64,000 bases of DNA from Tepidisphaeraceae bacterium (GCA_965198865.1 CBDAQA010000032.1:37571-101570), one strand, 5' to 3'. Shown: positions 8,471 to 28,996, counted from the first letter of the stretch. Notes: generated by a model from the sequence alone, not told the origin. Program-made: numbers and translations.

Positions 8471-8635
8471 CGGGCCCGTCCTGCGGCGGCTGCACGACAG
8501 TTGCACGACGGCACCCCGCGCCGTTGCACGGACGCGTGCGAGGATCCCCCACGTGTGGCCGGGTGGCCCGCGCCGCCCTGACCGCCGCCGGCCGTCTGGC
8601 GGGCGGCGGCGTCGGCCCGGCGGCGAGGTGCGAGG

Positions 8636-12595: not shown

Positions 12596-13627
12596 GAGCA
12601 GGTTCAGTTGAGCCGTAGCGCTATGGGGATCGCACTGGTACTTTCCGAATCTCAAGGAGAGGCACCAGATGGCATATTCGACCGACATCCGTTCCCGCGT
12701 GCTGGCCCTGTACGACGACGGCGTGAAGACGGCGGCGATTGCCAAGCAGCTGATGGTGTCGCCGGCCTGGGCGCGGCGGGTCAAGCAGCACCGGGACGCC
12801 GACCCGGCCCTGCGGCGGCCGGTCGGCGGGCGCAAGCCGAAGCTGGACCGGGCGGGCCGCGACCAACTGGCGAAATGGGTGGCAGAACGGCCCGACGCGA
12901 CGCTCGAAGAGCTGCGGGCGCGCGTGGCCAAGGAGCTGAAGGTCACCGTCAGCATCGGGTGCCTCTTCAACACGCTGCGGGCCCTGAAGCTGACCTTCAA
13001 GAAGAAGTCGCTCGTCGCCGCCGAGCAAAAAGAACGCCCCGACGTATCCAAGGCCCGCGACGCGTTCTTCGCCGAGCAGCTGAAGGGCGTGCCGCTGGCC
13101 GACATCGTCGTGATGGACGAGAGCTACGCGACCACGCAGTTCACGCGGTTGCGTGGCCGCGCCCCGGCGGGCGAGCGGCTCCACGAGCACGTGCCCCACG
13201 GCCACTGGAAGCGCCTCACGATCCTCGGCGCGATGACCGTGTCGGGTCCACTGGTCGCGACGACGATCGACGCCTCGACGTGCGGCGACACGTTCCGCAC
13301 GTTCGTCGACGACTTCCTCTGCCCGGCCCTGCGGCCGGGGCAGGTCGTCGTCATGGACAATCTCTCGGCCCACAAGGTGGCGGGCATCCGCGCCTCGATC
13401 GAGGCGGCCCAGTGTCGCCTGGTCTACCTGCCGCCGTACTCGCCCGACCTCAGCCCGATCGAGCCGATGTGGTCCAAGGTCAAGCAGGCGTTGAGGACCG
13501 CGGCCCAGCGGACCGTACAAGGTTTGATCGACGCCGTCGGCCCCGCGTTCGCCACGGTGACCGCCGGCGACTGCCTGGGCTACTTCACACACTGCGGATA
13601 CACGCTACACCTCAAGTGAAAATGCTC
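12596..13627 (+). mobile_element. IS630/Tc1-mariner-family insertion sequence
   Basis: 25-bp imperfect terminal IRs (GAGCAGGTTCAGTTGAGCCGTAGCG versus the reverse complement of CGCTACACCTCAAGTGAAAATGCTC, 20/25 matching). TA duplications flank it at 12594-12595 and 13628-13629. Confidence 0.85.
12669..13619 (+). CDS. IS630-family DDE transposase
   Basis: VVMDESYA..VVMDNLSAHK..LPPYSPDLSPIEPMWSKVK. Confidence 0.9.
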   Translation: MAYSTDIRSRVLALYDDGVKTAAIAKQLMVSPAWARRVKQHRDADPALRRPVGGRKPKLDRAGRDQLAKWVAERPDATLEELRARVAKELKVTVSIGCLFNTLRALKLTFKKKSLVAAEQKERPDVSKARDAFFAEQLKGVPLADIVVMDESYATTQFTRLRGRAPAGERLHEHVPHGHWKRLTILGAMTVSGPLVATTIDASTCGDTFRTFVDDFLCPALRPGQVVVMDNLSAHKVAGIRASIEAAQCRLVYLPPYSPDLSPIEPMWSKVKQALRTAAQRTVQGLIDAVGPAFATVTAGDCLGYFTHCGYTLHLK

Positions 13628-15445: not shown

Positions 15446-16060
15446 GTGGCGTACCGTGACACACTCCAGGCCCGCCGTGACCTGCACGCCCTGGCCGCCG
15501 GCCAGGGCGGGTACTTCACGGCCAAGCAGGCCCGGGCGGCCGGGTACGGCTATGCCCACCTGGCCTACCACACCGGGGCGGGCACTTTTGAACGGGCCGG
15601 CCCCGGGCTGTACCGGCTGGCCGACGTGCCGCCGTCGGAGCACGACGACCTGGTCCGCCTGGCCCTGTGGAGCCGCGACCGGGCCGACGCGCCCCAGGCG
15701 GTCGCGTCCCACGACACGGCCCTAACCCTCCACGGGCTGGGCGAGCTGCTGCCGGTCCGCACCCACCTGACGGTGCCGCCGGGGTTCCGCAAGGAGGCTC
15801 CCGGAGCCGTGGTGCTCCACCGGGCGCGGCTCGGGCCGGCGGACGTGGTGGAGCGGGAGGGGTTCTCGGTCACGACGCCCCTGCGGACGCTGTTGGACGT
15901 GGCGTCGGCCGGCACGGTGCCGGTCGAGCAGGTGGCGAAGGCGGCGGCCGACGCGGTCGCCCGCGGGCTCGTCCGCCGGCGACAACTGGACATTGCTGCA
16001 ATCGCGGCCGGGCCGGGCGCGGCCGCCCGGCTCGGGACGGCCGCGGCCCCGGTCGGCTGA
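15446..16060 (+). CDS. abiEi: AbiEi-family type IV antitoxin / transcriptional regulator
   Basis: ALAAGQGGYFTAKQARAAGY..LAYHTGAGTFERAGPGLYRLADVP..ASHDTALTLHGL is the AbiEi N-terminal signature. The GTG at 15446 is my preferred start, but it is uncertain. Confidence 0.75.
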   Translation: MAYRDTLQARRDLHALAAGQGGYFTAKQARAAGYGYAHLAYHTGAGTFERAGPGLYRLADVPPSEHDDLVRLALWSRDRADAPQAVASHDTALTLHGLGELLPVRTHLTVPPGFRKEAPGAVVLHRARLGPADVVEREGFSVTTPLRTLLDVASAGTVPVEQVAKAAADAVARGLVRRRQLDIAAIAAGPGAAARLGTAAAPVG

Positions 16061-16086
16061 GACGAGCGAGGAGCACGGCCGTGGCG

Positions 16087-16974
16087 ATGCCCCCACCCAA
16101 GCTGTTCGCGACGGCCGCCGCCTTCCGGGCGTCGCTAGAGGACCGGCTCAAGGGGGAGGCGGCCGCCCGCGGCGTGCCGTTGAACACGCTGCGGCTCAAG
16201 CTCGTGATGGAGCGGCTGTTGGCCCGGCTGTTCGCCGCGGCCGACCCGCCGTGGCTGCTCAAGGGCGGGTACGCCATGGAGCTCCGCTATCGCCCGCGGG
16301 CGCGGACCACCCGCGACCTGGACCTGACGATCACGTCCGTCGACGCGGCCCAGCCGCTCGCCGTTCGCCTGGAGCGGGTCCGGGACGAGCTGCAGGCGGC
16401 GGCCGAGGCCGACGCCGGCGACTTCCTGCGGTACACGATCGCCGCGGCGGTGAGTGAACTGCAGGGGGCACCGCTGGGCGGTGCCCGGTTCACGGCCGAG
16501 GCGACGCTGGCCGGGCGGCCGTACGGCCGCTTCCACCTGGACGTCGGCTTCGGCGACGCCGCCGGGGGCGAGCCCGAGCGGCTGGGCGGCGACGACCTGC
16601 TGGCCTTCGCCGGCGTGCCGCCGGCATCGGTGTTGGCCCTACCGCGGGCCCAGCACTTCGCAGAGAAGGTCCACGCCTACACGTTCCCGCGGGTCGGCCG
16701 AACGAACACGCGGACGAAGGACCTGGTCGACCTGGTCCTACTGATCGACCGCGGCGGGCTGCCGCCTGCCGCCGACCTGGCGGCGGCGGTGGCCGCCACA
16801 TTCGCGCGGCGGAGCACCCATCCGGTGCCCGTCGAGCTGCCGCCACCGCCCGCCGCGTGGACGTCGGACTACGCCGCACTCGCGGCCGAGGCGCAGCTTC
16901 CCGCCCCCGAGCTCGCCGACGGGTACGCCCTGGTCGCCGCCTTCTGGCGGACCCACGTGCCGTCCGTCCGGTGA
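16087..16974 (+). CDS. abiEii: AbiEii/AbiGii-family nucleotidyltransferase toxin (DUF1814)
   Basis: F..SLEDRLK..A...G..L..LR..LVMERLLARL......WLLKGGYAMELRY...R.T.DLDL. I take the ATG at 16087 inside the longer ORF 15667-16974. Confidence 0.8.
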   Translation: MPPPKLFATAAAFRASLEDRLKGEAAARGVPLNTLRLKLVMERLLARLFAAADPPWLLKGGYAMELRYRPRARTTRDLDLTITSVDAAQPLAVRLERVRDELQAAAEADAGDFLRYTIAAAVSELQGAPLGGARFTAEATLAGRPYGRFHLDVGFGDAAGGEPERLGGDDLLAFAGVPPASVLALPRAQHFAEKVHAYTFPRVGRTNTRTKDLVDLVLLIDRGGLPPAADLAAAVAATFARRSTHPVPVELPPPPAAWTSDYAALAAEAQLPAPELADGYALVAAFWRTHVPSVR

Positions 16975-17363
16975 ACTTGGGCGAGCGTATACGTTCCCCG
17001 TCCGATCCCGCTGACCGGGTGAACTCCCCCGCGCAGATGTTAACGCCAACCCAGACTCCCATGACGGACGTGGTATTCAGTTCAACGGCACTGTAAACCC
17101 TGATTGTCATCCTGTTCTAGTCGGGTTAGGGTCGCGGTCCGTGGGTGGCAGGTCTACAGGGCGGGTCGGGGTGGGTGCGCGCTAACGGCCGCTGTAAGGG
17201 GCCGAAGGTGCAGTTCAATGCCGACGCCCCGTGAGACCGCCGCCCGCTCGGGCCCGGGCCCGACGTGTTCCGTTCCGGCACGGAGGCCACACCCAGTCCC
17301 GCCCGGCGGGGCCGACGAATTCATCGTCGGTCCGCCGCGGGATGACCTCCACGGGAGTCCTGT

Positions 17364-17876
17364 GTGTCTACGGCCCCGCTCGTCCGCGTCGTCGCCCGAG
17401 ACCGGTCCGGTCCCGGCCGCCGGCTCCGCCTGCACCGGCTCGCGTTCGGCGTCCCGATCGCCGAGGACGCCGTCCCCAACCGCGACGGCACGTCCGACCG
17501 GATCTACCATTTCGCGCCCGGGTCGGTGTTCGCCATGGTGTGGTCCCGGCGAACGTGCCTCGGCCGCATGCGCCGCATCCTGGCAGTCGTCGAGACCCCG
17601 CGGCTGCCGGGCGACGAACGCCGCCCGCTGCCCGGCGTCCGCCCCGGCGTCATCGTCCACGCGACGCTGAGCGAGTTCGGACCGGCCGGATCGGTCGGCA
17701 CCTCGGGCGACGTCGACCGCATGATCGACCTGATCGATCGGGTGCGGGCGGCGGCCCTGGAGCCGGCCCACGTGCCGGCCCGGTACTGGGCCGCGGCGGC
17801 CGAGCGGATCCTGTTCGGCCGGCCGTTGCCCGACCTTCCCCGCCCCAGGCCCACAGACCATCGGAGGCCGGCGTGA
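17364..17876 (+). CDS. DUF2840-like protein (conserved ICE backbone gene preceding traF)
   Basis: HFAPGSVFAMVW matches my recollection of the DUF2840 core. GTGA overlap with the S26 peptidase gene, as in related ICEs. Confidence 0.5.
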   Translation: MSTAPLVRVVARDRSGPGRRLRLHRLAFGVPIAEDAVPNRDGTSDRIYHFAPGSVFAMVWSRRTCLGRMRRILAVVETPRLPGDERRPLPGVRPGVIVHATLSEFGPAGSVGTSGDVDRMIDLIDRVRAAALEPAHVPARYWAAAAERILFGRPLPDLPRPRPTDHRRPA

Positions 17877-18424
17877 GCCGCCACCACTCTGCGTACGGGC
17901 ACCGTGCATGGGCGACGGTGGGCCGCCACCCGGTCCTGGCGTTCGGCGCGGCGGCGACCGCCGCCCTCGGCGTCGCGTCGGGCCTGCTGGCCGACCGGCA
18001 GGTGGTGCTGAACACCTCGCCCAGCGTGCCGCCGGGCCTGTACGTGCGGTCGTCGGCCCCGCCGGCCGTCGGCCGGCTCGTCGACTTCCGGGTCCCGCCC
18101 GCCGCCCGGCTGTACGTGCTCGCCCGGTCGGGCCGGGACGGCCGCGACTGGTACATCCTCAAGCCGGTCGTCGCCGGCCCAGGCGACCGGGTGGACACGA
18201 CGGGTCCGTGGCTGACCGTCAACGGCCGGCCGCTCGCCCCGATGCCCCTGGCCGCCGACGGGTCCGGCCGGCCGCTGCCGGTCTGGCGGGCGCGGCGGTC
18301 GCTGCGGCCGAGCGAGTTCCTGGTCGTCTCCACCCGGATCGCCAACAGCTTCGACAGCCGCTGCTACGGGCCGGTCACGACGGCGCAGATCGCCGCCGTC
18401 CGCGTGCCGCTGGTGACCTGGTGA
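17873..18424 (+). CDS. traF: S26-family signal peptidase, conjugative TraF type
   Basis: NTSPSVPPGLY (catalytic Ser context) and NSFDSRCYGPV. Only the last 183 aa of track ORF 17231-18424 are used. Confidence 0.75.
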   Translation: MSRHHSAYGHRAWATVGRHPVLAFGAAATAALGVASGLLADRQVVLNTSPSVPPGLYVRSSAPPAVGRLVDFRVPPAARLYVLARSGRDGRDWYILKPVVAGPGDRVDTTGPWLTVNGRPLAPMPLAADGSGRPLPVWRARRSLRPSEFLVVSTRIANSFDSRCYGPVTTAQIAAVRVPLVTW

Positions 18425-18546
18425 GGCTCGGTTGCGGGATGCCGGGGAACTCGACGCGGCGGTGCGGCGAACGCGGTCGGCCTACTGCCCTCAGCACTCG
18501 CGCGAGGCGATCGCTTGGCGCGGGCGCAGACCAGACCGTTGAGCTT

Positions 18547-18797
18547 GCCCGTCGGAAGGGAGAAGGAAGGCGGCGGGGCCCCAGCTCCCGCTCCGCTCTC
18601 GAAAGATCACCGGCCTGCGGCCTTGCCATGCTCGCCTCCTCCCCGGGGACGTACCCGGGTCCGGGGGCTGCGGCGTGGCATGCCCTTCGTCCGCTCCGCT
18701 CCCGCGTTCCCGCCGCCTGCGGCGTGGAGTGCTGACCATTAGGTCAGGTTGTTGACCTCCCGGCCTGCCTTCTTCCGAAGGCCGGGAGGTCAACAAC
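18547..18797 (+). repeat. Noncoding repeat copy A (3' module plus terminal hairpin), upstream of DUF932
   Basis: About 90% identical over roughly 190 nt to 25253-25440, with 4-nt and 1-nt indels that break every frame. Ends in an 18-bp perfect hairpin (18748-18765 / 18780-18797). Confidence 0.7.
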
Positions 18798-18877
18798 ATG
18801 CGGCGGCCGCGGGCCGACGCCATCCCGGTCCCAGACACCCCGGGGCCCTCGCGCCCCACCATCGGGAGGTGCCCACC

Positions 18878-19885
18878 ATGGCACACGAGATCGACCTGAC
18901 CACCGGGACCGCCGCCGTCTTCGTCACCGGGCAACCCGCCTGGCACGGACTGGGGCGGTGCATCGAGCACGCCGCGACCAGCGCCGACGCGATCGGCCTG
19001 GCCGGGCTGGACTGGGCCGTCCAGCAGTGGCCCGTCCGGGCGTTCGACCCGGACCACCACAGCACCGAGGCCGGCATCCCCGACACGGTCGCCAACGTCC
19101 GCACGGACACCAAGGCCGTGATGGGCGTGGTCGGCCGGCGTTACCGCGTGTTCCAGAACCGCGAGGCGTTCGACTTCATGGACGCCCTCGTGGGTGACAA
19201 GCTGGCCATGTACGAGACGGCCGGCAGCCTGCACGGGGGCCGCCGCGTTTGGATGCTGGCCCGCATTCCCAAGGAGTACCGGGCCGGGGCGGACGACCTG
19301 GTCCGCCCGTACGTGCTGCTGACCAACACCCACGACGGCACGCAGGCCCTGCGAATGATCCCGACCACCGTCCGCGTCGTCTGCCAGAACACGCTCAACC
19401 TGGCCTTGCGGGAGGGCGGCGTCGAGGGGTTGAGCATCAGCCACCACCCGCGACTAGAGGGGCGGGTGGCCGAGGCCCGGGCCAAGCTGGGCATCATCGC
19501 CGCCCGGTTCGACCGGTTCGACGAGGAGATGCACGCCATGCTGGCCAAGGACCTGAGCGTCGCCGAGGCGGGCGGGTACTTCCGCGGCCTGTCCGGGGCC
19601 GACCTGCCGGCCACGTCGCAGCGGCAGAAGAACTCCCGGGAGCGGGTGCTCGGTCAGCTGCTGGCCAACTTCGACAACGACCGCAACACGCTGCCCGGCA
19701 TCCGCCACACCGCGTGGGGCGCGTACAACGCGGTCAGCGAGTGGGCCGACCACCAGAAGGCGTACCGCGGGGGCAGCCCCGAGGAGAAGCGGAACCGGCG
19801 GCTGGACTCGGTCTGGTTCGGCACGTCCCACCAGCTGAAGCAGGCCGCCTACCGCGGGGCCCTGGAGCTGGCCGGCGTCGCCTGA
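18878..19885 (+). CDS. DUF932 domain protein (phage/plasmid leading-region family)
   Basis: AWHGLG..VRTD...VMGVVG.RY.V.QN.EAF.F.DALVG....YETAGSL.GGRRVWMLA..VLLTN.HDG..AL....TTVRVVCQNTL. ATG at 18878 with GGGAGG 9 nt upstream. Confidence 0.85.
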   Translation: MAHEIDLTTGTAAVFVTGQPAWHGLGRCIEHAATSADAIGLAGLDWAVQQWPVRAFDPDHHSTEAGIPDTVANVRTDTKAVMGVVGRRYRVFQNREAFDFMDALVGDKLAMYETAGSLHGGRRVWMLARIPKEYRAGADDLVRPYVLLTNTHDGTQALRMIPTTVRVVCQNTLNLALREGGVEGLSISHHPRLEGRVAEARAKLGIIAARFDRFDEEMHAMLAKDLSVAEAGGYFRGLSGADLPATSQRQKNSRERVLGQLLANFDNDRNTLPGIRHTAWGAYNAVSEWADHQKAYRGGSPEEKRNRRLDSVWFGTSHQLKQAAYRGALELAGVA

Positions 19886-19906
19886 CCCGAGGCATCCGAC
19901 ACACCC

Positions 19907-19938
19907 GCCCGCCCCGGTGCCAACCCGCCGGGGCGGGC
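19907..19938 (+). terminator. GC hairpin after the DUF932 gene
   Basis: 11-bp perfect stem GCCCGCCCCGG / CCGGGGCGGGC with a 10-nt loop, followed by TT. No long U tract. Confidence 0.4.
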
Positions 19939-19996
19939 TTGCCGCAGGGCACCACGCCCCGCCCTAACATCGTCCGACCCAAGTGGAGCGGCCACT

Positions 19997-20911
19997 GTGA
20001 GCCTCACCCGTGACCCCATCCCGGCCGTTCCCCGCCTGCCGGCCGAACTGACCGCCGTGGCCCAGTGGCTGCTGTGGCGGCGGGAGGACCGCCACGGCCG
20101 GCCGACCAAGGTGCCGTACGCCGCCGCGACCGGCCGCCGGGCGGACGTGACCGACCCGGCCGCGTGGGCGACGTTCGCCGCCGCCCGGGCGGCACTGCTG
20201 GCCGGCCGCGGCCGGTACGCCGGGCTAGGCTTCGCCTTCGCCGCCGGTGGGCCGTTCTGCGGCGTCGACCTAGACGACGCCATCACGCCGGCAGGTCAGT
20301 TGTTTCCGTGGGCGGTCCGGATCGTCGCGAGCCTGAACACCTACGCTGAGGTCAGCCCCAGCGGCCGGGGCGCGAAGCTGGTCTGCCGGGGGCGGCTGCG
20401 GCCCGGGCCGGACGGCCGGACCCGGCACAAGCGGGTCGGGCTCGGGCCTGACAGGGCCGGGTCCGTCGAGCTGTACGACGGCCGGCGGTTCTTCACGCTG
20501 ACCGGCCGGCCCGTGCCGGGCCAGCCCGGGCCGCTCCCTGTCGCCGCACGCCAGCCGGCGCTGGACGCAGTCTGCCGGGAGCTGTTCCCGCCACCCCGGC
20601 CGGTCCCGGCCCGACGGTCACCACCGGCACCCGGGTCGGCCGACGACGATGCGATCTTGGCCCGGGCGGCCGCGGCGGGCGGAACCCGGTTCGCCCGGCT
20701 GTGGGCCGGCGACGCCGCCGCATACGGCGGCGACCGCTCAGCCCGGGACGCAGCTCTGTGTGCATCGCTGGCCGGGCAGACGCGGGACCCCGATCAAATC
20801 GCGCGTCTGGTTAGCCGGTCCGGGTGCGACCGACCCAAATGGTCGGGCCGGCCCGACTACCGGGACCGGACCATCCGGTTTGCCCTAGGCGCGGCAAACC
20901 GCACGGGGTAG
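19997..20911 (+). CDS. AEP-family primase-polymerase (PrimPol) domain protein with a PriCT-like C-terminus and no helicase domain
   Basis: QWLLWR....GRPTKVPY, GFAF..GGPFCGVDLDD (DxD), YAEVSPSGRGAK, ELYDGRRFFTLTG, and C-terminal SARDAALCASLAGQTRDPDQIARLV..S. Confidence 0.7.
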   Translation: MSLTRDPIPAVPRLPAELTAVAQWLLWRREDRHGRPTKVPYAAATGRRADVTDPAAWATFAAARAALLAGRGRYAGLGFAFAAGGPFCGVDLDDAITPAGQLFPWAVRIVASLNTYAEVSPSGRGAKLVCRGRLRPGPDGRTRHKRVGLGPDRAGSVELYDGRRFFTLTGRPVPGQPGPLPVAARQPALDAVCRELFPPPRPVPARRSPPAPGSADDDAILARAAAAGGTRFARLWAGDAAAYGGDRSARDAALCASLAGQTRDPDQIARLVSRSGCDRPKWSGRPDYRDRTIRFALGAANRTG

Positions 20912-20927
20912 GGCGCGCGTACGCCCG

Positions 20928-20952
20928 TCCCGGCCGGCTGCGCCGGCCGGGA
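20928..20952 (+). terminator. GC hairpin after the PrimPol gene
   Basis: TCCCGGCCGG-ctgcg-CCGGCCGGGA, a 10-bp perfect stem. Confidence 0.4.
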
Positions 20953-21019
20953 TGGGAATGGGAGCGGCAACGCCGGGTGCCGCGTCTCTCGCGTGCGGCA
21001 GCATGGGGACCGACCATTG

Positions 21020-21061
21020 CCGCCGCCCGTTGCCGCGGCTTCTCCCCGCGACGGGCGGCGG
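21020..21061 (+). other. 11-bp perfect-stem hairpin immediately upstream of a strong promoter
   Basis: CCGCCGCCCGT ..20 nt.. ACGGGCGGCGG. Ends 17 nt before the -35 hexamer at 21078. Confidence 0.4.
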
Positions 21062-21077
21062 CGAAAACGGCTCGGCG

Positions 21078-21107
21078 TTGACACGGACGTTGTGCTCGGA
21101 CTATAAC
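21078..21107 (+). promoter_or_regulatory. Near-consensus sigma70-type promoter (TTGACA-N18-TATAAC)
   Basis: TTGACA at 21078-21083 and TATAAC at 21102-21107. Conspicuous in GC-rich DNA. Points toward the small ORF / XRE / RT genes. Confidence 0.5.
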
Positions 21108-21426
21108 GCCGTCGCCAGAGAGATACGCCTTGGTTGTTCCCCCGCTCCTGACCTCGGCCAGGACGGCGTCCCGGTGAGGGACTCGTCACCCAAGCCCGCT
21201 CGCTCGGCCCCGTGTTGCCGTTCTCGCACGGGGATGCCGGTCGCCTCCACGACTGGCCCGAGCCTTGGGGTTGGGCGATGGCGGCGACGTCGCGGCCGAT
21301 GGGTCGCGACGCCGTCGCACTGGACGCTCAACGTCCGCAGCTGTTGCCCGCAACAGCCGCAGCCGTCGATCGCACAGAGTTGGGCCACTGTGGCCCTTCG
21401 TCACGTTCAGCAACCAAGGAGCTTTT

Positions 21427-21666
21427 ATGTTCGGAGGCAACTCGCCTGGCGAGTCGTCCCCTGACTGCGTCGTCCACCAGGCCATTGTCGAGTGGTGGGA
21501 GGCGATCGAGACGGGCGGCGACTTCGGTTCGACGAATTGGGAGACCCTCGTGTCCTTGCGTCACTCGGTGACCGCGGCCCTCGCGGCCAGCCCGCCACAA
21601 CTCGACTACGCTGGCCGCCAGACCGCTCTGGCGATGATGCTGGTCACCGGGCGGACGCTTCACTAG
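21427..21666 (+). CDS. Hypothetical 79-aa protein
   Basis: ATG at 21427 preceded by AAGGAG (21416-21421). No recognisable domain. Confidence 0.45.
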   Translation: MFGGNSPGESSPDCVVHQAIVEWWEAIETGGDFGSTNWETLVSLRHSVTAALAASPPQLDYAGRQTALAMMLVTGRTLH

Positions 21667-21688
21667 GGCTCCCTTAACTGAACAACAC

Positions 21689-22021
21689 GTGCCCACCGCG
21701 GCACACGACCGTATGAACCTTGGACCAACAGCACGAGCCCTCCGCGAGGAGTTCGGCATCACTCAACGGGCGGCGGCCGACCGTCTGGGCGTCACCTACG
21801 CCCACCTGTGTAACGTGGAGGGCGGCAAGGCCCGGCCGTCGCCCGAACTGCAGGCCAGGTACGGCGAGGTGTTCGGGGTCGATCTTTACGTGTACGCCTG
21901 GTGCACGTCGGGCGAACTCGATCGCATGCCGCCCGCCATGCGGGGCCCGACCGAGCGGCTGGCCGACGCGTGGCGCAAGTTGATCGAGCAGCGCCGCCGA
22001 CAGTTCAACGCCGCGGGGTGA
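21689..22021 (+). CDS. XRE-family HTH transcriptional regulator
   Basis: LGPTARALREEFGITQRAAADRLGVTYAHLCNVEGGKARPS. An alternative ATG start lies at 21713. Confidence 0.75.
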   Translation: MPTAAHDRMNLGPTARALREEFGITQRAAADRLGVTYAHLCNVEGGKARPSPELQARYGEVFGVDLYVYAWCTSGELDRMPPAMRGPTERLADAWRKLIEQRRRQFNAAG

Positions 22022-22024
22022 GCC

Positions 22025-23011
22025 ATGCTCGGCGTCAGGTCAGTCGGCGAGCTGGCGGCCGTCCTGAAGACGACGCCCCGGCGGATGTTCGACGTGGCCG
22101 CTCGCAAGGGCGACCACGTCCGGCGATATGAGTTGGTCGACCCGGCCAAGCCGCACAAGGCCCCGCGTCCCGTCCTGTCTACCACCGGCCCCTACCGCCA
22201 ACTGCAAACACAGATCCTCCGCGGGCTGCTCGGCCCGCGACTGCGGCCGAGCCCGTACAGCTTCGGCGGGATCGCCGGGCGGAACGCCGTCCAGAACGCA
22301 CGCCAGCACCTCGGGTCCAGCTTCGTCTTCACGACCGACATCCGGAACTTCTTCCCGAGCATCAATTTTTGGCAGGTCCGGGACACGTTCGAGCGCCGGT
22401 TCCGTTGCCCGCCGGACGTCGCACTGCTGCTCGCCACACTATGTACTCACGACGGCCACCTCGCTCAGGGGCTGATGACGTCACCGATTCTGGCCGACCA
22501 TGCCGTGCGGCGGATTGACGCCCGGATCGGCGGGCTGTGCGACGGTCTGGGGCTCGTCTACACGCGGTTCGTGGACGACGTGACCGTCTCCGGCCGGTTC
22601 GGGCTGGACAAGACCGAATCGGCGGTGGTGCGATTGATCCGCCAGATCCTCGGCGAGTCTGGGTTCGCCGTAGCCCTGCACAAGGAGCAGGACGGGCGGC
22701 TGTCCGACGGCGAGGTGGCCGTGACCGGCTACCGCCAACTCCGGTCACGCTTGGACGTGGCGTCCGACTATATCCGCGGGCTGGAACGGAGCCTTGAGTC
22801 ACATCGACTCCTCGGCCTCGGCGAGCCGTTCCACGGCCTGCTGTTCACGCGGGATCAGCTGGCCGGGAGGGTCGCCCACGTGTGCAACGCGAATCGGAAC
22901 CGCACTCGCCCCCTGAGCCAGCAATTGGCGGCCATTGATTGGGACGGCGTGCGAGCGAACGCCGAGGCACGGGGCCTCCTGGTCTGTCGTAAGCAACTGC
23001 GACCTGTGTAA
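22025..23011 (+). CDS. Retron-type reverse transcriptase
   Basis: SFGGIAGRNAVQNARQH.GSSFVFTTDIRNFFPSI (motifs 1-A), LAQGLMTSPILAD (motif B), YTRFVDDVTVS (motif C, YxDD variant) and a downstream VAVTGY (retron VTG motif). 328 aa, with no endonuclease, maturase or CRISPR domains. Confidence 0.8.
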   Translation: MLGVRSVGELAAVLKTTPRRMFDVAARKGDHVRRYELVDPAKPHKAPRPVLSTTGPYRQLQTQILRGLLGPRLRPSPYSFGGIAGRNAVQNARQHLGSSFVFTTDIRNFFPSINFWQVRDTFERRFRCPPDVALLLATLCTHDGHLAQGLMTSPILADHAVRRIDARIGGLCDGLGLVYTRFVDDVTVSGRFGLDKTESAVVRLIRQILGESGFAVALHKEQDGRLSDGEVAVTGYRQLRSRLDVASDYIRGLERSLESHRLLGLGEPFHGLLFTRDQLAGRVAHVCNANRNRTRPLSQQLAAIDWDGVRANAEARGLLVCRKQLRPV

Positions 23012-23073
23012 ACGGCACCCGGCCGGGCAGCCACGGCTTGATCCCCACCAGCGTCACGCAACTCACAAAGACC

Positions 23074-23350
23074 GCGGACGTGGGTGCAAGGACCCCTGAG
23101 TACAGCGGTCCCCGCCCCCACACCCCCTGCCCCCCGCGGCCGATCCGGTGAGCGTGCCTGCCGGAAGGGAAGGCGGACCGCCTCCGGCGGACGGTCCCGT
23201 TCGCCTTCGTCTCGTGTCGGGCGAGCGTACGCAGCCGTGCTCGCCGTCAAGGTCCCCCCCGCGGCCGTACCGCGGGACCCTCCCTCCGGGCAGCTCCACC
23301 CTGACGGCTCCGCGCGGCCGCGTCCCCCTTCCTCCATCGAGGTGAAGGGC
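23074..23350 (+). repeat. Noncoding repeat copy B (5' module), upstream of ardC
   Basis: 23074-23180 is nearly identical to 25172-25280 (GCGGACGTGGGTGCA(A/G)GGACCCCTGAGTACAGCGGTCCCCGCCCCCACACCCCCT..). The 3' part diverges. Confidence 0.6.
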
Positions 23351-23408
23351 GGGTGCTGGGTTGTGTCCCACACCCCCGACGCCTGAGTCCCGAAGGGAGC
23401 CGTGCCCC

Positions 23409-24290
23409 ATGTCCAAAGAGTTCGACCTCTACCAGACCGTCACCGACCGGATCGTCGCCATGCTCGACGCCGGCGTGGTGCCGTGGCGGTCGCCGATCCT
23501 CTCCGCCGGCCCGGCCGGTCGGCCCAAGAACTTGGCCAGCGGGCGGCCGTACCGCGGCGTCAACGTCTTTCTCCTCGCCTTCGCCACGTTCGAGCGGGGC
23601 TACGCCTCGCCGAACTGGGTCACGTTCAATCAGGCCCGGGAGGCGGGCGGGATCGTCCGCAAGGGTGAGAAGTCGTCCATGGTCGTGTTCTGGAAGGTGT
23701 ACGACACGGCCGACCGCAAGACCGGCGAGCCGACGCGGGTTCCCGTCCTCCGCTACTACAACGTGTTCAACGTCGGGCAGTGCGACGGCATCGCCGACCC
23801 AGAGGCGGTGTCGGCGGCCCCGGCGACCGACTTCCAACCGGTGGAGCGGGCCGACGCCATCCTGGCCGGGTTCGAGGGAAAGCCGCCGATCGAAGTGGCA
23901 GGCACCCGGGCGTTCTACCGCCCGGCGACCGACACGGTCACCATGCCCGGGTCGGCCCGGTTCGCGTCAACCGAGGCCTACTACGCCACCCTCTTCCACG
24001 AGCTGGCCCACAGCACGGGCCACCCGTCCCGCTTGCACCGGGAGACGGTCGCCGACCCGCAGCCGTTCGGGACGGCCGACTACGGCAGGGAGGAGCTCGT
24101 GGCGGAGATGTCGGCCGCGTTCCTCTGCTCGGCGGCCGGGATCGGGCCGGCGACGATCGACAACCAGGCGGCGTACCTGGGCGGGTGGCTGAAGCAGATC
24201 CGGGGCGACAAGCGGCTGGTCGTGACCGCCGCCGGGGCGGCCCAGCGGGCGGCCGACTGGATCCTGGGCAACCGGGACCAGCCCGGGTGA
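23409..24290 (+). CDS. ardC: ArdC-type antirestriction protein (ssDNA-binding N-domain plus metalloprotease C-domain)
   Basis: LYQTVTDRIVAMLDAGVVPWRSP......P.N..SGRPYRGVNVFLL and TLFHELAHSTGH (HEXXH). Confidence 0.9.
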   Translation: MSKEFDLYQTVTDRIVAMLDAGVVPWRSPILSAGPAGRPKNLASGRPYRGVNVFLLAFATFERGYASPNWVTFNQAREAGGIVRKGEKSSMVVFWKVYDTADRKTGEPTRVPVLRYYNVFNVGQCDGIADPEAVSAAPATDFQPVERADAILAGFEGKPPIEVAGTRAFYRPATDTVTMPGSARFASTEAYYATLFHELAHSTGHPSRLHRETVADPQPFGTADYGREELVAEMSAAFLCSAAGIGPATIDNQAAYLGGWLKQIRGDKRLVVTAAGAAQRAADWILGNRDQPG

Positions 24291-24296
24291 GCGGGG

Positions 24297-24324
24297 CCGA
24301 CGGCCACGCCCTTACGGCCGTCGG
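24297..24324 (+). terminator. GC hairpin after ardC
   Basis: CCGACGGCC-acgcccttac-GGCCGTCGG, a 9-bp perfect stem starting 7 nt after the stop. Confidence 0.4.
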
Positions 24325-24590
24325 CGGACCCCGCCGGCGGCCGCGGTCCGCTTGCCGTGCGGGATCGGTTCGTCATGAAGTCGCGGCCGGGCGGCCGCGC
24401 GGCATGTCGACGGGTCCGGCCGGCTGCGCCGGCCGGACCAGCGCGGGGGAGCCGGCCTCCGGGGCCGGCCCGCTCCCCCGCGACCCCCTCGCCCGCCCGG
24501 GATGGCGGACCGCCAGGCCGGCCCTGCGGGCCGGCCGCGGCGGACGCCAGACTGGCTTGTCGCGATAACAGGCGATACCCCGCTGTCCCA

Positions 24591-24995
24591 TCAACTACGC
24601 CCTGCGTTAGGCGTGAATCGGTAAGTGCCGTCCCCCTGACCGAAGTCGCGCAGCTCCAAGCGTCCGTCCGCCAGTTCCGGCACCGTGAACAGGCGGCCGA
24701 CACCGGACCAGCTCGCCATGCCCTCCCGCCAGACTTCACAATGCCAGCCGACCTGACCGCCCCTCAGCAGCGCGATCAGATCCACCGTGGGGTATGGCCC
24801 GCACTGCTGTGGACCGTCCCGAACCGTCCACGCCGCCCCGGCACGCCCGACCATTGCAAGCAGGTTCGCCGCCCGGCTGGCGGCCGACCGGAGCCGGTGC
24901 AGACACGGCGTGCAGACCACGCGACGCTCGGCCCAGACGTTCGCTTTCGCCCGTGGGCCGATGACCTTGCCGCACTCGTCGCACGCTGTTTCCAA
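24591..24995 (-). CDS. Zinc-ribbon plus GYF_2 (DUF4339)-like domain protein
   Basis: N-terminal CDECG..(x17)..CTPC, then W.V.DG.QQCGPYPTVDLIALLRGGQVGWHCEVWREGMASW. Confidence 0.6.
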   Translation of the reverse strand: METACDECGKVIGPRAKANVWAERRVVCTPCLHRLRSAASRAANLLAMVGRAGAAWTVRDGPQQCGPYPTVDLIALLRGGQVGWHCEVWREGMASWSGVGRLFTVPELADGRLELRDFGQGDGTYRFTPNAGRS

Positions 24996-25171
24996 TCGCT
25001 CCTCCGATCGTCCCCGCCGAGGCCGGCCTGCTCCCGAACATCCTCACGCGAGTTGTACCGCGCTGCGCCGCCCGAACGTCTGGACCGGTCGTCGGGGCAG
25101 ACGCGCAAAGCTCGGCCCGGGGAGCGGTGACTGCGTCGTCACGTGCCCTGAGCGGGGGCAGAGCAGAAATT

Positions 25172-25487
25172 GCGGACGTGGGTGCAGGGACCCCTGAGTA
25201 CAGCGGTCCCCGCCCCCACACCCCCTACCCCCCGCACCAAGCCGGTGAGTGTTCCTGCCGGAAGGGAGAAGGAAGGCGGCGGGGCCCCAGCTCCCGCTCC
25301 GCTCTCGAAAGGTCACCGGCCGGGTACGGCCTTGCCATGCTCGCCTCCTCCCCGGCGTACCGGGTCCGGGGGCTGCGGCGTGGCATGCCCTTCGTCCGCT
25401 CCGCTCCGCGTTCCCGCCGCCAGCGGGGGCGTGGGTCAGTCTTTGACCTCCCGGCCTGCCTTCTCGCGAAGGCCGGGAGGTCAAAGA
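25172..25487 (+). repeat. Noncoding repeat copy C (5' module + 3' module + terminal hairpin), upstream of ssb
   Basis: The 5' third matches copy B and the remainder matches copy A. 17-bp perfect hairpin at 25440-25456 / 25471-25487. Confidence 0.7.
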
Positions 25488-25580
25488 ATTGCGTGGACCT
25501 CGGGGCCTTCGCCATCCCAGCAAGCGACGCGGGCACCCCAACGTGTCCGGTCCGCCTTCGCCATCAGAAGGAGGCCAGCC

Positions 25581-26090
25581 ATGGCCAGCAGCTACAACCG
25601 GGTGATCCTCATGGGACGCCTGACCCGGGACCCCCAGGCCGGCACGTTGCCCAGCGGGACGGCGGTGTGCGAGCTCGGGCTCGCCGCCAACCGCCGGTGG
25701 CGGGACCGCGACGGGGTGACCCGCGAGGACGTCCTGTTCATCGACTGCACGGCGTACGGGAAGGTGGCCGAGACCCTTGCCGCCCACCTGACCAAGGGCC
25801 GGCCGGTCCACGTCGAGGGGCACCTGAAGCTGGACCGGTGGGAGCAGGCCGGGCAGCCCCGGACCAAGGTCCGCGTGGTCGTCGAGCAGTTCCGGTTCGT
25901 CGACCCGCCGCCGGGCGAGCGGGCCAGTGGCGGACGCGACCGTGCGCCCGAAGACCGGCCCGACGGCACCCCGGGCCAGCCCGCCGCCCCGGCCAAGCGG
26001 GCCACCCGCGGCCGACGCCGGCCGCCGTCCGCACGGCCGCAGGTGACTGCCCCGGCGGCCGCCACCGGCGACGACGACGTGCCGTTCTGA
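25581..26090 (+). CDS. ssb: Single-stranded DNA-binding protein
   Basis: YNRVILMGRLTRDP......G.AV....LA.NR.W.......E...FIDC.AYGK.AE.....L.KGR.V.VEG.L, with the acidic tail DDDVPF. Confidence 0.9.
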   Translation: MASSYNRVILMGRLTRDPQAGTLPSGTAVCELGLAANRRWRDRDGVTREDVLFIDCTAYGKVAETLAAHLTKGRPVHVEGHLKLDRWEQAGQPRTKVRVVVEQFRFVDPPPGERASGGRDRAPEDRPDGTPGQPAAPAKRATRGRRRPPSARPQVTAPAAATGDDDVPF

Positions 26091-26199
26091 ACCGCGGGAC
26101 ACCGGGCGGCGGTCACTTCGGCCGCCGTCCCCGCCCGCCGGTTCGCTGCGCTTCCCGTTCCCCCGATCCGACACCGACACACAGCACAGAGGTACACCC

Positions 26200-28170
26200 A
26201 TGTCCCGCCAGACTTCCACGATCCAACGCGACCGTGACGCCGTCTTGATCCCCCTGTCCAAGCTGGTCCCCGCCGGCCGCCGCAACCCCCGCCGGGTCAA
26301 GCCCGAGCGGGACGCCCACCGCCGCCTGGTCGCCAGCATCCGGGCGCACGGCCTGCTCCAGCCGCTGGTCGTCCGGCCCGTCACGGCCACTTGTGAAGGC
26401 AACGACAAGCCGGCCAACGGCCAGCCCGGCGCGTACCGGGTGACGGCCGGCCACCGCCGCCTGGCCGCCCTCCGCGAGGTCCACCGGGGCGACGACGCCG
26501 TCCGCGTGCCGTGCGTCGTCCGCCCGGTCGACACCGACGACGCGGCCGACGCCCAGGCCCTGGCCGAGAACTTCGCCCGCGAGCCGATGCACCCGCTGGA
26601 CGAGGCGACCGCGTTCGCCAAGCTGGCCCGGGAGGACGGCCGGGACGCCGAGGCCATCGCCGCCGACTTCGGCGTCACGCCCGCCTACGTCCGCCAGCGG
26701 ATGAAGCTGGCCGACCTGTCCGATGCGGTGCAGTCGGCGTACCGGGCCGGCGAGATCGACACGGCCACGGCCGAGGCGTTCGCCGCCGTCCCGCCGGACA
26801 AGCAGGCGGCCGTGTGGGCCGAGGTCGGCGGCCGGCCGCAGCACGCGGCCCACGTCCGCAACGTGATCGCCAACGGGTGGGTCGACGCCGCCCACGCCCT
26901 GTTCGACGTGTCGCAGCTGCCCGACTGGACCGTCAGCCGGGACCTGTTCGGCGACCGGGTCCTGGTCGAGCGGGCGGCGTTCCTGTCCGGCCAGTCGGAG
27001 GCGCTGGCCGACGAGCGGCAGCGGCTGGCCGAGGACGGCTGGGCCGAGGTGGTCGCCGGGTGCGCCGCAGACGTGCGGGACCGACTCTGGTCGATGAACG
27101 AGGCACCGCACGCGTACGACGAACCGACCACGGCCAAGCTGGCGAAGCTGGCCACCCGGCGGCAGGAGCTGGAGGACCGGTACACCGAACTGGACGGCGA
27201 CAACGACCCGGACGACGCCATTAGTGACGCCCTGGCCGCCAAGCTGGAGGCGGTCGACGAGGCCGAGCGGGCCCTGACGACGGACGCCGCGGTCCGCTAC
27301 GCCGAGGCGACCAAGGCGGTCGGGACCGCGTTCCTGATCCTGGACCCCGACGGGCAGGTCCGGCGGGAGTACCGGGTGCCGCGGGCCCGGCCGGGACAGG
27401 CCACCGGCCACGGTTCGGCGTTCGGGCCGGACGGCGTCACGCCGGCCGCACCGCAGCCGCCCACGTCCGACGACCTGCGGGAGTCGCAGCTGGCCGCCAC
27501 GTTCACGCACCAGGCGATGGCCGTCCGCCAGGCGTTGCTGGCATACCCGATGGTCCGCCGGCGGGTGCTGGCCGTCGCCCTGCACGACCGGGTCCGGGCC
27601 GAGGGGCTGGCCGTCCGCCACGACGCCAACGGGACGACGCTGCACGCCGACCACGCCGAGTCGTTCGCGTCCGCCGCCCGGGACGAACTGCGACAACGGC
27701 GGGCGGAACTCGACCCGCTGCACGACCGCGGGCTGGTGTCGGACGCCGAGGCGTACGCCGCCGTGGCGGCGCTCCCGGCCGAGCGGCTGGACGCCCTGAT
27801 CGACCTGCTCACAGTGGAGTGTGTGACGGCCCACCTGCAGCGGCGGACGGACCTGGTCTGCCGGCTGGCCGAGGAGTTGGGCGTGGACGTCCGGCGGCAC
27901 TGGCGGCCGGACGCGGCGTGGCTGGCCGGCTACCAGAAGGCGCAGCTGGTCCACCTGACGTACCAGCTCCGCGGCCCGGCGTACGGGGGCGCGGCGGAGC
28001 GGAAGAAGAAGTCGGAGCTGGTCGCCGAACTCGCGCAGCTGTTCGCCGATGCCGCCGCCGGCACGCTGGCCGACGGCCCGCTAGCGGCTCGCCTGAACTG
28101 GTGGCTGCCGGCCAACCTGCGGCCCCAGCTGTCGGCCGACGCACCGGCCGTTCGGTCCGACGCCGCCTGA
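26200..28170 (+). CDS. Large ParB/Srx-domain protein (KorB/ParB-like, 656 aa)
   Basis: LIPLSKLVPAGRRNPR......SIRAHGLLQPLVV and YRVTAGHRRLAAL. Confidence 0.8.
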   Translation: MSRQTSTIQRDRDAVLIPLSKLVPAGRRNPRRVKPERDAHRRLVASIRAHGLLQPLVVRPVTATCEGNDKPANGQPGAYRVTAGHRRLAALREVHRGDDAVRVPCVVRPVDTDDAADAQALAENFAREPMHPLDEATAFAKLAREDGRDAEAIAADFGVTPAYVRQRMKLADLSDAVQSAYRAGEIDTATAEAFAAVPPDKQAAVWAEVGGRPQHAAHVRNVIANGWVDAAHALFDVSQLPDWTVSRDLFGDRVLVERAAFLSGQSEALADERQRLAEDGWAEVVAGCAADVRDRLWSMNEAPHAYDEPTTAKLAKLATRRQELEDRYTELDGDNDPDDAISDALAAKLEAVDEAERALTTDAAVRYAEATKAVGTAFLILDPDGQVRREYRVPRARPGQATGHGSAFGPDGVTPAAPQPPTSDDLRESQLAATFTHQAMAVRQALLAYPMVRRRVLAVALHDRVRAEGLAVRHDANGTTLHADHAESFASAARDELRQRRAELDPLHDRGLVSDAEAYAAVAALPAERLDALIDLLTVECVTAHLQRRTDLVCRLAEELGVDVRRHWRPDAAWLAGYQKAQLVHLTYQLRGPAYGGAAERKKKSELVAELAQLFADAAAGTLADGPLAARLNWWLPANLRPQLSADAPAVRSDAA

Positions 28171-28269
28171 CCGGGCGCACGCCACCCGGCACTTGGCCAC
28201 ATTCGCAACGCCGGGTCGGCCAACGCCGACCCGGCGTTCGCTTGCGCACTGCCACACGTCGCCGACCCG

Positions 28270-28599
28270 TCACTCCCACGGGTGCGGCAGCCGCACGACC
28301 GGGTGGCGCACCGATGCGGCGAATACTTCGGCCACCGCCCGCCAGGCCCCGCCCCGCTGCGCGACCCGCAGCCATGCGTACTCCCACAGGGCGCACTGGA
28401 CGCCCACGCCGAACGTGAACCCGATCGGCAGCAGGACGGCCGACGGGTGCCCGCGGGCCATCCACAGGTAGAACGCCCAGAACCACAGCCCCAGGTCGGC
28501 CAGCACCTCGGCACAGCAGAACAGCACCACGACCAAGATGCCCAGTTGCACCAGCCCCAGCACCACCAGGAACCGGCACGCCTCTCGGAACGCTCGCAT
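28270..28599 (-). CDS. Small hydrophobic (multi-TM) hypothetical protein
   Basis: FLVVLGLVQLGILVVVLFCCAEVLADLGLWFWAFYLW is predicted TM helices by eye. Internal ATG at 28599 chosen. Confidence 0.35.
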   Translation of the reverse strand: MRAFREACRFLVVLGLVQLGILVVVLFCCAEVLADLGLWFWAFYLWMARGHPSAVLLPIGFTFGVGVQCALWEYAWLRVAQRGGAWRAVAEVFAASVRHPVVRLPHPWE

Positions 28600-28743
28600 C
28601 GGGTCACCTCCTCGTCCGCGACAACGGGCCGAGTTACCAACTCGCACGCGGAGTCCGCAACGGTTTTCTCACCCGAACTCGCGGGCGGCATCTCGCGCTC
28701 TTCGGAGCAGTCCAGTCCGACTGCACGGCGGTCTGGATTCGCG

Positions 28744-28771
28744 TTGATCGACCACTCCGACCCGGTATAAT
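28744..28771 (+). promoter_or_regulatory. Sigma70-like promoter TTGATC-N16-TATAAT upstream of the relaxase gene
   Basis: TTGATC at 28744-28749 and a perfect TATAAT at 28766-28771. Confidence 0.45.
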
Positions 28772-28996
28772 CGGTGACTTGCAATCGGGTCCGGCAAGCG
28801 GGGTGTCCTGCTGTTGGACCGGACTGCTGGGCCGGATGAGGGCGGATTGCAAGGTAAAAGGGTCCCAGGTGTCGTTGTCGTAGCCTTTGCCTTCGGCAGG
28901 GTTTGTGACAACCGCCCTGCCCGCCCGCCCAGTGGGAACCACCTTGGCCGCTTTCGGCCGTCCTACTGCCCGTTCCTCACCCCCGGAGGTGTGGCC

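Follow-up and report, generated by a model that had tools for sequence, protein, structure and literature searches.

A modular family of structured non-coding elements upstream of DUF932, ardC and ssb genes in a planctomycete conjugative element, and its possible role as an mRNA leader

The 64,000-nt stretch of Tepidisphaeraceae DNA analysed here (GCA_965198865.1 CBDAQA010000032.1:37571-101570; hereafter the window, with positions counted from its first letter) holds a planctomycete conjugative element of 70% GC with type IV secretion genes, encoding an RlxS-like relaxase, VirD4, VirB4, VirB9 and VirB10. Three related sequences stand upstream of its DUF932, ardC and ssb genes, and we rate the chances as about even that they form a modular, cis-acting structured leader, on the sense strand, of the mRNAs of establishment genes in a planctomycete integrative and conjugative element. 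The element is apparently undescribed, specific to its context and supported by covariation, with two families that share a 5' module.

Among the upstream and mobility genes are a serine recombinase (8582-10162), IS630, AbiEii (15667-16974) and a TraF-like S26 peptidase. The block that concerns us comprises DUF932, a weakly primase-polymerase-like open reading frame (ORF), a type VI retron, ArdC, an unknown ORF, SSB, which binds single-stranded DNA, and a ParB-family protein; the last, a KorB/ParB-like protein of 656 amino acids (aa) with a helix-turn-helix (HTH) domain, is encoded in an ssb-parB operon. The transfer genes include those for the RlxS-like relaxase and VirD4, with VirB4 and VirB9-B10 encoded on the opposite strand. 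A preliminary description of this DNA had taken the genes behind the repeats for leading-region-type establishment genes of a conjugative element, and their Pfam content, their position upstream of the relaxase operon and their co-orientation with it bear this out. From the published account of the F plasmid (PMC11541004) we infer that this order and direction would reproduce the geometry of the F leading region with respect to its tra operon. The homologues of ArdC come almost entirely from Planctomycetota, mainly Tepidisphaeraceae and Phycisphaerae, and the nearest is 95% identical (GCA_030012885.1).

By repeat search and pairwise alignment the 64 kb contain exactly three copies, all on the same strand and placed as the preliminary description had them: copy A before DUF932, copy B before ardC and copy C before ssb. 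No further copy was found in the whole window by repeat search, nhmmer or covariance model. Copies A (18530-18813) and C (25236-25504) are 84% identical over 287 columns, with 100%-identical stretches of 29 and 48 nt, and copies B (23074-23180) and C (25172-25277) are 88% identical over 107 columns, rising to 97% in the first 64 nt. The modular pattern reported earlier stands, but the figures given with it (about 90% over some 190 nt for A and C, near identity over about 105 nt for B and C) were slightly optimistic. What B and C have in common is a 5' module made up of a hairpin (U1), a C-rich tract and a conserved box (type-1); A and C share a 3' module that runs from the type-1 box through a structured core to a small hairpin, hp4, and copy A is without U1. 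Copy B proved to be longer than had been seen, its 3' part (23199-23384) being a separate conserved element. That the copies are non-coding, as had been argued, follows from the gap runs in the A/C alignment (3, 3, 1, 1, 1, 1, 10 and 1 nt) and from the third-position GC signal, which marks every flanking gene and is missing from 18425-18877, 23012-23408 and about 25130-25580. A leader peptide starting at ATG 18798 was considered and rejected, its frame not being conserved (1-nt indel relative to the related locus L015). The features, from 5' to 3', are as follows.

18531..18578, + strand: type-1 box of copy A (CCGTTGAG...CGGAAGGGAGAAGGAAGGCGG), the conserved 5' boundary module (type-1 profile nhmmer; box alignment)
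18583..18720, + strand: structured core of copy A, with helices P1 and P2, hairpins hp1 and hp2, and hairpin P4 (covariance model R1, 86.7 bits; pair counts)
18745..18800, + strand: hp3 of copy A, a near-perfect 22-bp hairpin (GTTGTTGACCTCCCGGCC / GGCCGGGAGGTCAACAAC; inverted repeat, 95% complementary)
18800..18828, + strand: hp4 of copy A (GCGGCGGCC-GCG-GGCCGACGC), then the conserved box CCATCCCGG (compensatory UA 20/GC 13; predicted Shine-Dalgarno pairing)
18864..18880, + strand: Shine-Dalgarno sequence GGGAGG and ATG of the DUF932 gene (sequence)
18878-19885, + strand: DUF932/TIGR03299 gene (Pfam PF06067, 1.5e-60)
23074..23137, + strand: hairpin U1 (loop GAGTAC) and C-rich tract of copy B (97% identical to the copy C module)
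23138..23180, + strand: type-1 box of copy B, with a 6-nt deletion relative to A and C (nhmmer 23143-23170, E = 0.013; alignment)
23199..23384, + strand: ardC-specific structured leader of copy B, with a long helix GCCGUCAAGGU / ACCCUGACGGC (nhmmer; compensatory changes)
23392..23411, + strand: Shine-Dalgarno sequence GAAGGGAG and ATG of ardC (sequence)
23409-24290, + strand: ardC gene (Pfam ArdcN and MPTase-PolyVal)
25172..25235, + strand: hairpin U1 and C-rich tract of copy C (repeat search, alignments)
25235..25284, + strand: type-1 box of copy C (nhmmer E = 1.9e-10)
25289..25424, + strand: structured core of copy C, in the order P1, hp1, P2, hp2, P4 (covariance model R1, 115.1 bits)
25440..25487, + strand: hp3 of copy C, a perfect 17-bp hairpin (TCTTTGACCTCCCGGCC / GGCCGGGAGGTCAAAGA; repeat search, sequence, fold)
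25491..25520, + strand: hp4 of copy C and the conserved box CCATCCCAG (alignments)
25567..25583, + strand: Shine-Dalgarno sequence GAAGGAGG and ATG of ssb (sequence, fold)
25581-26090, + strand: ssb gene (Pfam SSB)
28690..28775, + strand: relaxase-proximal repeats (GTCCAGTCCGACTG-type) with a canonical TTGATC-16-TATAAT promoter, not part of the repeat family (sequence, relatives)
18611-18621 (variant), 18657-18667, 23093-23105, 23276-23290, 25191-25203, 25316-25330 and 25366-25374: G-N-G-U-A-C hairpin loops

The anatomy of the element was worked out from 38 non-redundant copies, 61-81% identical to copy A, together with their upstream flanks. It is modular and about 330-450 nt long. At its 5' end stand the GC-rich hairpin U1, whose arms covary, and the C-rich tract TCCCGCACCCTCTCTCCC, and homologues of this pair lie upstream of most relatives. 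The type-1 box that comes next, with the consensus AAATCCG-TGAG-N7-CTGTCGGAA-CAATAAGGA-GGCGCCGGG, is common to all three window copies and nearly all relatives; it is the only module in every copy and, by nhmmer, forms the 5' edge of nearly all of them. It may be followed by an optional hairpin domain of about 75 nt ('type 2'). The core is organized around two helices, P1 (GAAACGCCA/TGGCGTTC) and P2 (UGCCAUGC/GCGUGGCA), whose long-range pairing spans 75-110 nt. It includes hairpin hp1 (GGCCG-AGUA-CGGCC), which 8 of the 38 copies lack, and hp2, whose outer and inner stems lead to an NGUA loop; in a third of the copies hp2 is lengthened by a paired 40-nt insertion, and P4 comes after it. Then come hp3, a perfect hairpin of 17-22 bp flanked by U and A runs, the small hairpin hp4 and the conserved box CC(A/U)UCCCGG, and about 25 nt further on the Shine-Dalgarno sequence and start codon. 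Blocks of 10-20 nt (TTGCCATGCTCG, GCGTGGCATG and TTCGTCCGCT) are invariant.

In the window and in all relatives, loops of the form G-N-G-U-A-C, which contain the palindrome GUAC, close U1, hp1 and hp2 as well as one of the inner hairpins of the ardC leader. That such loops recur in two leader families which are otherwise unrelated could be the sign of a common binding factor. We also considered loop-loop 'kissing' between the GUAC sequences of hp1 and hp2; it was rejected, as it shows no covariation and hp1 is the hairpin absent from some copies.

RNAalifold run on raw MAFFT alignments under-predicted the structure, because the variable hairpins misalign, and the helices were therefore set by hand and by a covariance model. 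In the MAFFT alignment of the 38 copies, 88.5% of the cells in the hand-defined helices are paired, versus 35-47% when the partners are slid by 1-3 columns; two-sided changes occur in 21 of 74 pairs, and the covariation score of 0.107 (0.064 for shuffled alignments) was reached in 0 of 500 shuffles. The model-fitted alignment of 46 distinct cores, which is biased towards the structure by construction, has 95.6% of cells paired (28-43% when slid) and a covariation score of 0.179 versus 0.071 for shuffles. Individual helices tell the same tale: in the model-fitted alignment each of the five pairs in the inner stem of hp2 occurs as 3-4 pair types; a P1 pair is swapped between CG and GC (29 and 13 sequences); variants of the hp3 arms compensate each other (TCCAACCCGG/CCGGGTTGGA, TTACC/GGTAA); and a pair of hp4 is UA in 20 copies and GC in 13. 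Hairpins, loops and insertions vary in length while pairing is kept, which speaks for single-strand hairpins and against palindromes bound by protein in the duplex. A conserved secondary structure, which the preliminary description had made a touchstone of its proposal, thus emerges from both the multi-copy alignment and the covariance model.

The distribution of the family was approached without gene information, by scanning metagenome contigs for a 20-base pattern, GCGTGGCATGNNNTTCGTCCGCT, drawn from conserved blocks of the window and L015. This gave 64 further loci, from peat and soil, and nhmmer showed every one to be a homologue, either full-length or cut off by a contig end. Reading on along the strand of the element, one meets DUF932 first in 45 cases, ssb in 6, and another or unrecognizable gene in 6, and the contig ends in 9; DUF932 or ssb thus lies downstream in 51 of the 57 copies with a visible gene, its start codon some 30-90 nt past the end of the element. 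On longer contigs the backbone reads element-DUF932-ssb-parB-orfX(-)-relaxase-virD4. Relatives usually have one copy, at the head of the DUF932-ssb-parB operon and beside the relaxase; the window differs in that 5.7 kb of inserted genes stand between DUF932 and ssb, with the leader occurring in two copies. Third-position GC was uninformative for the orientation of the upstream genes in these metagenome contigs, which have 56% GC.

A search with covariance model R1, which describes the core with 134 positions and 39 pairs, returned 66 matches in the motif-first set. Over 1.5 Mb, consisting of the window and 83 ArdC loci from GTDB genomes and close relatives, it found only window copies A and C, L015 and L081, and these two are also the only ones of the 83 loci to hold the A/C element. 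The copy in L015 is 74% identical and precedes a ParB-like gene. This is not the distribution of a dispersed repeat. A miniature inverted-repeat transposable element or a repetitive extragenic palindrome had been considered and was set aside, there being three copies in 64 kb, four R1 matches in 1.5 Mb, one full copy per metagenome locus and a constant context. The supposition that the repeats specifically precede ssb, ardC or DUF932 accordingly held up, with no stray copies in the 1.5 Mb, and neither of the outcomes named beforehand as damaging to it (random scatter, or no conserved structure) was seen.

Parts of the element also occur separately. A half-copy, extending from U1 through hp2 and without the 3' arm of either P1 or P2, is found at 2920-3090 of locus L104, where it precedes two unknown genes (245 and 405 aa) with a full copy and DUF932 directly downstream, and similar half-copies are present in L092, L099, L126 and L138. 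Fusions of half-copies to other leaders arose independently in window copy B and in L104, and it looks as though the common 5' part moves along with genes that are newly inserted.

In copy B the common 5' modules are joined to the second structured family, the ardC leader. Of 82 ArdC loci from Planctomycetota genomes searched with nhmmer, 38 have this leader, of about 165-185 nt, directly upstream of ardC (within L001-L058), and it has no match in Rfam. Its 11-bp helix GCCGUCAAGGU/ACCUUGACGGC contains compensatory pairs (UA 19/AU 8 and CG 23/GC 4), and in L045 several positions are altered together. There are two alternative inner domains, one of which has a CGUA/AGUA-type loop. Inspection of folds and alignment by eye, with no formal count, suggests a long-range pairing of CCUCC...AUCGAG with ...CUCGA..GGAGG at the ribosome-binding site, and the flanks of this pairing appear, likewise by eye, to covary (CGAGU/GCUCG versus CGGUU/AACCG); an automatic Shine-Dalgarno analysis of the ardC leaders was unreliable, as their start codons were extrapolated. 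The fusion of the ardC leader to U1, the C-rich tract and the type-1 box is a property of the window and the L081 lineage.

Given a conserved fold, the question was on which strand, and in which nucleic acid, it acts. Wobble pairs bear on this, as a U·G pair on the + strand becomes an A·C mismatch on the minus strand. On the + strand there is an invariant U·G pair in P2, another where the outer stem of hp2 ends (32 of 38 copies in the MAFFT alignment, 44 of 44 in the model-fitted one) and a third in hp4 (27 of 38); a P4 pair is GU in 24 copies, AU in 17 and GC in 4, and overall 177 G·U cells stand against 70 A·C. The fold moreover leads into the ribosome-binding site, for in 20 of 29 non-redundant copies the Shine-Dalgarno sequence is predicted, at a probability above 0.5, to pair with the conserved box; this pairing is a prediction, unlike the family membership, context, structure and covariation described above, which are observed. 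The helix between box and Shine-Dalgarno sequence is retained in copies with an extra hairpin inserted in its loop. In ssb-type copies the Shine-Dalgarno sequence or AUG is predicted to pair locally instead, that of the window ssb with CCUUC at 25555-25559. Both the sense-strand G·U pairs and the predicted sequestration of the Shine-Dalgarno sequence favour an mRNA leader.

Several points weigh against such a leader. The strand asymmetry rests largely on 3-4 pair positions; in the variable columns only, some 43 G·U stand against some 20 A·C, each dominated by a single column, and the main helix of the ardC leader has 0 G·U and 8 A·C. As single-stranded DNA, folding is about as favourable on the minus strand, with z-scores of -2.8 to -5.3 against shuffled sequence on both strands. 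The predicted probability that the Shine-Dalgarno sequence is paired, 0.90, is in only modest excess of the 0.82 obtained for composition-matched shuffles, and its helix with the conserved box is nearly invariant and gives no covariation signal. The box is also kept in ssb-type copies that have no matching Shine-Dalgarno sequence, so that it must have a further role. No promoter matching TTGACA/TATAAT at 8 or more of 12 positions was found on either strand, in the 300 nt upstream or inside the element, for the window and about 50 copies, and transcription through the element is therefore assumed. No ligand or binding factor can be named for the leader. Among weaker promoter candidates, TTGAGT-18-AAGGAT (7/12) in the type-1 box was rejected, since its -35 is not conserved (often GTGTGT) and the GC-rich window copies lack T at -7; sigma-54 and extracytoplasmic function (ECF) readings of TGGCATG...TTCGT and GGAAAC, judged by eye, do not fit in spacing. 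The window copies contain no terminator.

If the element does work as an RNA leader, the shared 5' control module (U1, C-rich tract and type-1 box) would provide a common regulatory input and may hold a non-canonical promoter or transcript start. Behind it would come a fold specific to the class of gene: for DUF932 and ssb(-parB) the P1/P2 stem with its two G-NGUA-C hairpins, P4, hp3 and hp4, and for ardC the second family. Pairing of CC(A/U)UCCCGG with the Shine-Dalgarno region would keep translation initiation closed by default, and expression would follow when the last helix is opened, either by a factor that binds the core or by processing at hp3, which at about 20 bp would be of a size suitable for RNase III. 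DUF932, ssb-parB and ardC would thereby come under one input. We infer that the element is transcribed and acts as RNA, and the trigger is likewise a matter of inference. As for its history, a 5.7-kb insertion carrying the primase-polymerase-like ORF, the type VI retron, ardC and the unknown ORF may have split an ancestral DUF932-ssb-parB operon, and duplication of the leader would have kept ssb-parB under the same control. The 97% identity of the 5' modules of B and C, set beside 84% between A and C, points to recent recombination between leaders.

The preliminary description had offered two mechanisms, a shared leader RNA and an element of the Frpo/ssi type, and it is the former that fits better, by virtue of the sense-strand G·U pairs and the predicted Shine-Dalgarno sequestration; for the latter, neither its defining hexamers nor any similarity in PLSDB was found. 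Put more generally, the competing proposal is that the minus (template) strand, as the transferred strand, folds in the recipient and recruits RNA polymerase or primase for zygotic expression or priming, with no sigma-70 hexamers; we think this improbable, though it deserves serious attention. The set of genes and their geometry mirror the F leading region, with a likely origin of transfer (oriT) between the establishment genes and the relaxase operon (PMC11541004), and the copies have no ordinary promoter, as would be expected of a signal specific to single strands, though the relaxase operon has a textbook one. Both strands fold as DNA far better than shuffled sequence (the z-scores just given), and the helices are kept on either strand, some of the A·C cells, 12 at the hp1 base and 8 in the ardC helix, becoming G·T on the minus strand. 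On the same strand, however, the invariant or near-invariant U·G pairs of P2 and hp4 become A·C mismatches; no -35/-10 pair of at least 8/12 exists on either strand of some 50 copies; the fold is multi-branched with short hairpins, not a single long imperfect stem; and it continues into a helix predicted to sequester the Shine-Dalgarno sequence, which is meaningful in RNA only. Nor is there any similarity to PLSDB plasmids, and both the oriT and the identity of the transferred strand are putative. A more specific proposal, which we also hold to be rather unlikely, is that the element is the high-GC, non-enterobacterial counterpart of single-stranded-DNA promoters or priming sites, a start signal on the incoming strand that is devoid of hexamers, is recognised through its G-NGUA-C loops and would drive zygotic ssb, ardC and DUF932 expression in planctomycete conjugation, or else a large riboregulator that would sense whether conjugation is under way, perhaps through titration of SSB or ParB, and would co-ordinate all establishment genes by means of the shared 5' module.

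Two further explanations were weighed. If the region were a non-canonical promoter with operators for a regulator encoded by the element (e.g. the KorB/ParB-like protein), its palindromes would be protein sites. The invariant blocks of 10-20 nt do exceed what pairing needs, a ParB-family HTH protein is encoded in the operon, and the type-1 box stands, in the manner of a promoter or operator, in all copies, including half-copies before unrelated genes; but compensatory changes in at least 11-21 pairs of seven or more helices, the pairing of P1 and P2 over 75-110 nt, and arm spacings that range from 10 to more than 40 nt, as in hairpins and unlike fixed half-sites, make this distinctly unlikely. 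It is more improbable still, to the point that we give it very little credence, that hp4 and CCATCCCGG are the relaxase hairpin and nick site of an oriT, or that the 5' module is a site of cassette insertion. The element does head a conserved backbone beside a variable upstream region, and duplicated 5' modules flank inserted genes both in the window and in L104; CCATCCCGG also weakly resembles ATCCTG, which we take to be the IncP-type nick core. Yet no ATCCTGY occurs in or near the window copies, insertions between box and Shine-Dalgarno sequence preserve their predicted pairing, and a single conjugative element has two full copies, which lie 6.7 kb from each other and keep a constant distance to a start codon. 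There is also a better candidate: directly upstream of the relaxase, in the gap behind parB, lie iterated direct and inverted repeats, GTCCAGCCCGACAG / CTGTCTGGCTG, beside the canonical promoter, and they are conserved in relatives (L147 3700-3975, L120 7640-7880, L104 9900-10120), in which the relaxase promoter is TTGACG-17-TATAAT. On sequence grounds this array is the most plausible candidate for an oriT or operator.

Comparison with known systems places the element in none of the Frpo/ssi, radC or STAXI groups. The Frpo/ssi elements of F-like and IncI plasmids (Masai & Arai 1997; PMC11541004) are likewise non-coding, a few hundred nt long, present in several copies per element and extensively paired within the strand, and they stand directly ahead of ssb and of anti-defence genes in the stretch beside oriT. 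As promoters such elements work only when single-stranded, with stimulation by SSB. They are defined by a stem-loop in which -35, -10 (and UP) elements have complementary partners (PMC11541004); here no -35, -10 or UP hexamers occur on either strand, the fold is branched and not a single long stem, there is no sequence similarity, and wobble pairs favour the sense over the template strand. The gene context and the co-orientation with the relaxase operon fit the Frpo setting, the oriT here being a candidate only. The radC RNA motif (RF01754; PMC2864571) is similarly a structured motif in the presumed 5' untranslated regions of DNA-handling genes of mobile elements, including anti-restriction genes, but it is proteobacterial, differs in sequence and architecture, and its Rfam model has no match in the window at E up to 10. 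STAXI (RF01728; PMC2864571) lies near ssb, topoisomerase, anti-restriction and integrase genes, and its discoverers raised the same ambiguity between RNA and single-stranded DNA (PMC2864571); it consists of tandem pseudoknot repeats with UUCG loops in Enterobacteriales, while the present element, which its model does not match, forms one large unit of several helices with G-NGUA-C loops. With leaders that sequester the Shine-Dalgarno sequence (riboswitch platforms, RNA thermometers and those of the T4 gene 32 type) it shares a predicted anti-Shine-Dalgarno box after a larger conserved fold; it differs in having no terminator and no ligand, temperature or protein input that could be named, and in being much larger than known thermometers. 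In its working the element is most like these leaders, and in its context like radC, STAXI and Frpo/ssi.

Database searches agree with this placement. The whole window gave no Rfam match at the gathering score, and three regions searched at E up to 10 gave only noise from microRNA and small nucleolar RNA hairpins. In PLSDB (72,556 plasmids), where plasmids with known Frpo/ssi elements are to be expected, there was no match to copy C by blastn and none to 17000-29000 by megablast. Full-text literature searches found no RNA motif described with DUF932 and no oriT linked to DUF3363-family relaxases. The Rhodopirellula-1 motif (Weinberg 2010) was considered and has a different sequence. The pattern TTGCCATGCTCG-N20-50-GCGTGGCATG had seven matches in IMG/VR, all in one phage group (L084-L090), where a 49-nt stretch with N27 lies in apparent coding sequence at a gene junction; we regard these as chance and unrelated, and a second IMG/VR pattern had no match.

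To our knowledge, essentially nothing is known outside the Enterobacteriaceae of how establishment and anti-defence genes are switched on at entry, and the Frpo-type promoters that we are aware of are recognised only by similarity to a few F and IncI sequences. The present families are a resource in this respect: two covariation-supported folds, with at least 46 distinct DUF932/ssb leaders and 38 ArdC loci with the ardC leader, and an upstream module that travels. Should they act as RNA, they would rank with the larger cis-regulatory folds still to be characterised, having about 300 nt and blocks of 10-20 nt that do not vary, and would be tied to horizontal gene transfer; should they act as single-stranded DNA, early expression from the transferred strand would need no sigma-70 hexamers. 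Either way they mark where the leading region lies in conjugative elements of a phylum whose mobile elements are barely annotated.

Some neighbouring features of the window merit mention. Between DUF932 and ardC, the type VI retron (21689-23011) comprises HTH_VI and RT_VI components (PADLOC 1.6e-09 and 1.9e-46). The lower-GC, non-coding-looking stretch upstream of it (20950-21690) has no match in Rfam, and the retron non-coding RNA was not located there. The 304-aa ORF at 19997-20911 resembles, in its C-terminus, the helix-bundle domain of the NrS-1 primase-polymerase (E = 3.4e-06, just below the Pfam cut-off) and could be an element-encoded primase of the establishment region. On the minus strand, a 947-aa ORF (40164-43007) with CagX/VirB9 and TrbI/VirB10 domains is an apparent VirB9-VirB10 fusion. 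Transposase genes lie inside the element, one of the DDE_Tnp_1_4 type adjoining the type IV secretion genes (49406-50797) and one of the IS630 family (12612-13619). Three 66-nt segments at 12093-12524, 70-76% identical and spaced 180-186 nt apart, fall within an ORF (11971-12618) and are probably a tandem repeat at the protein level.

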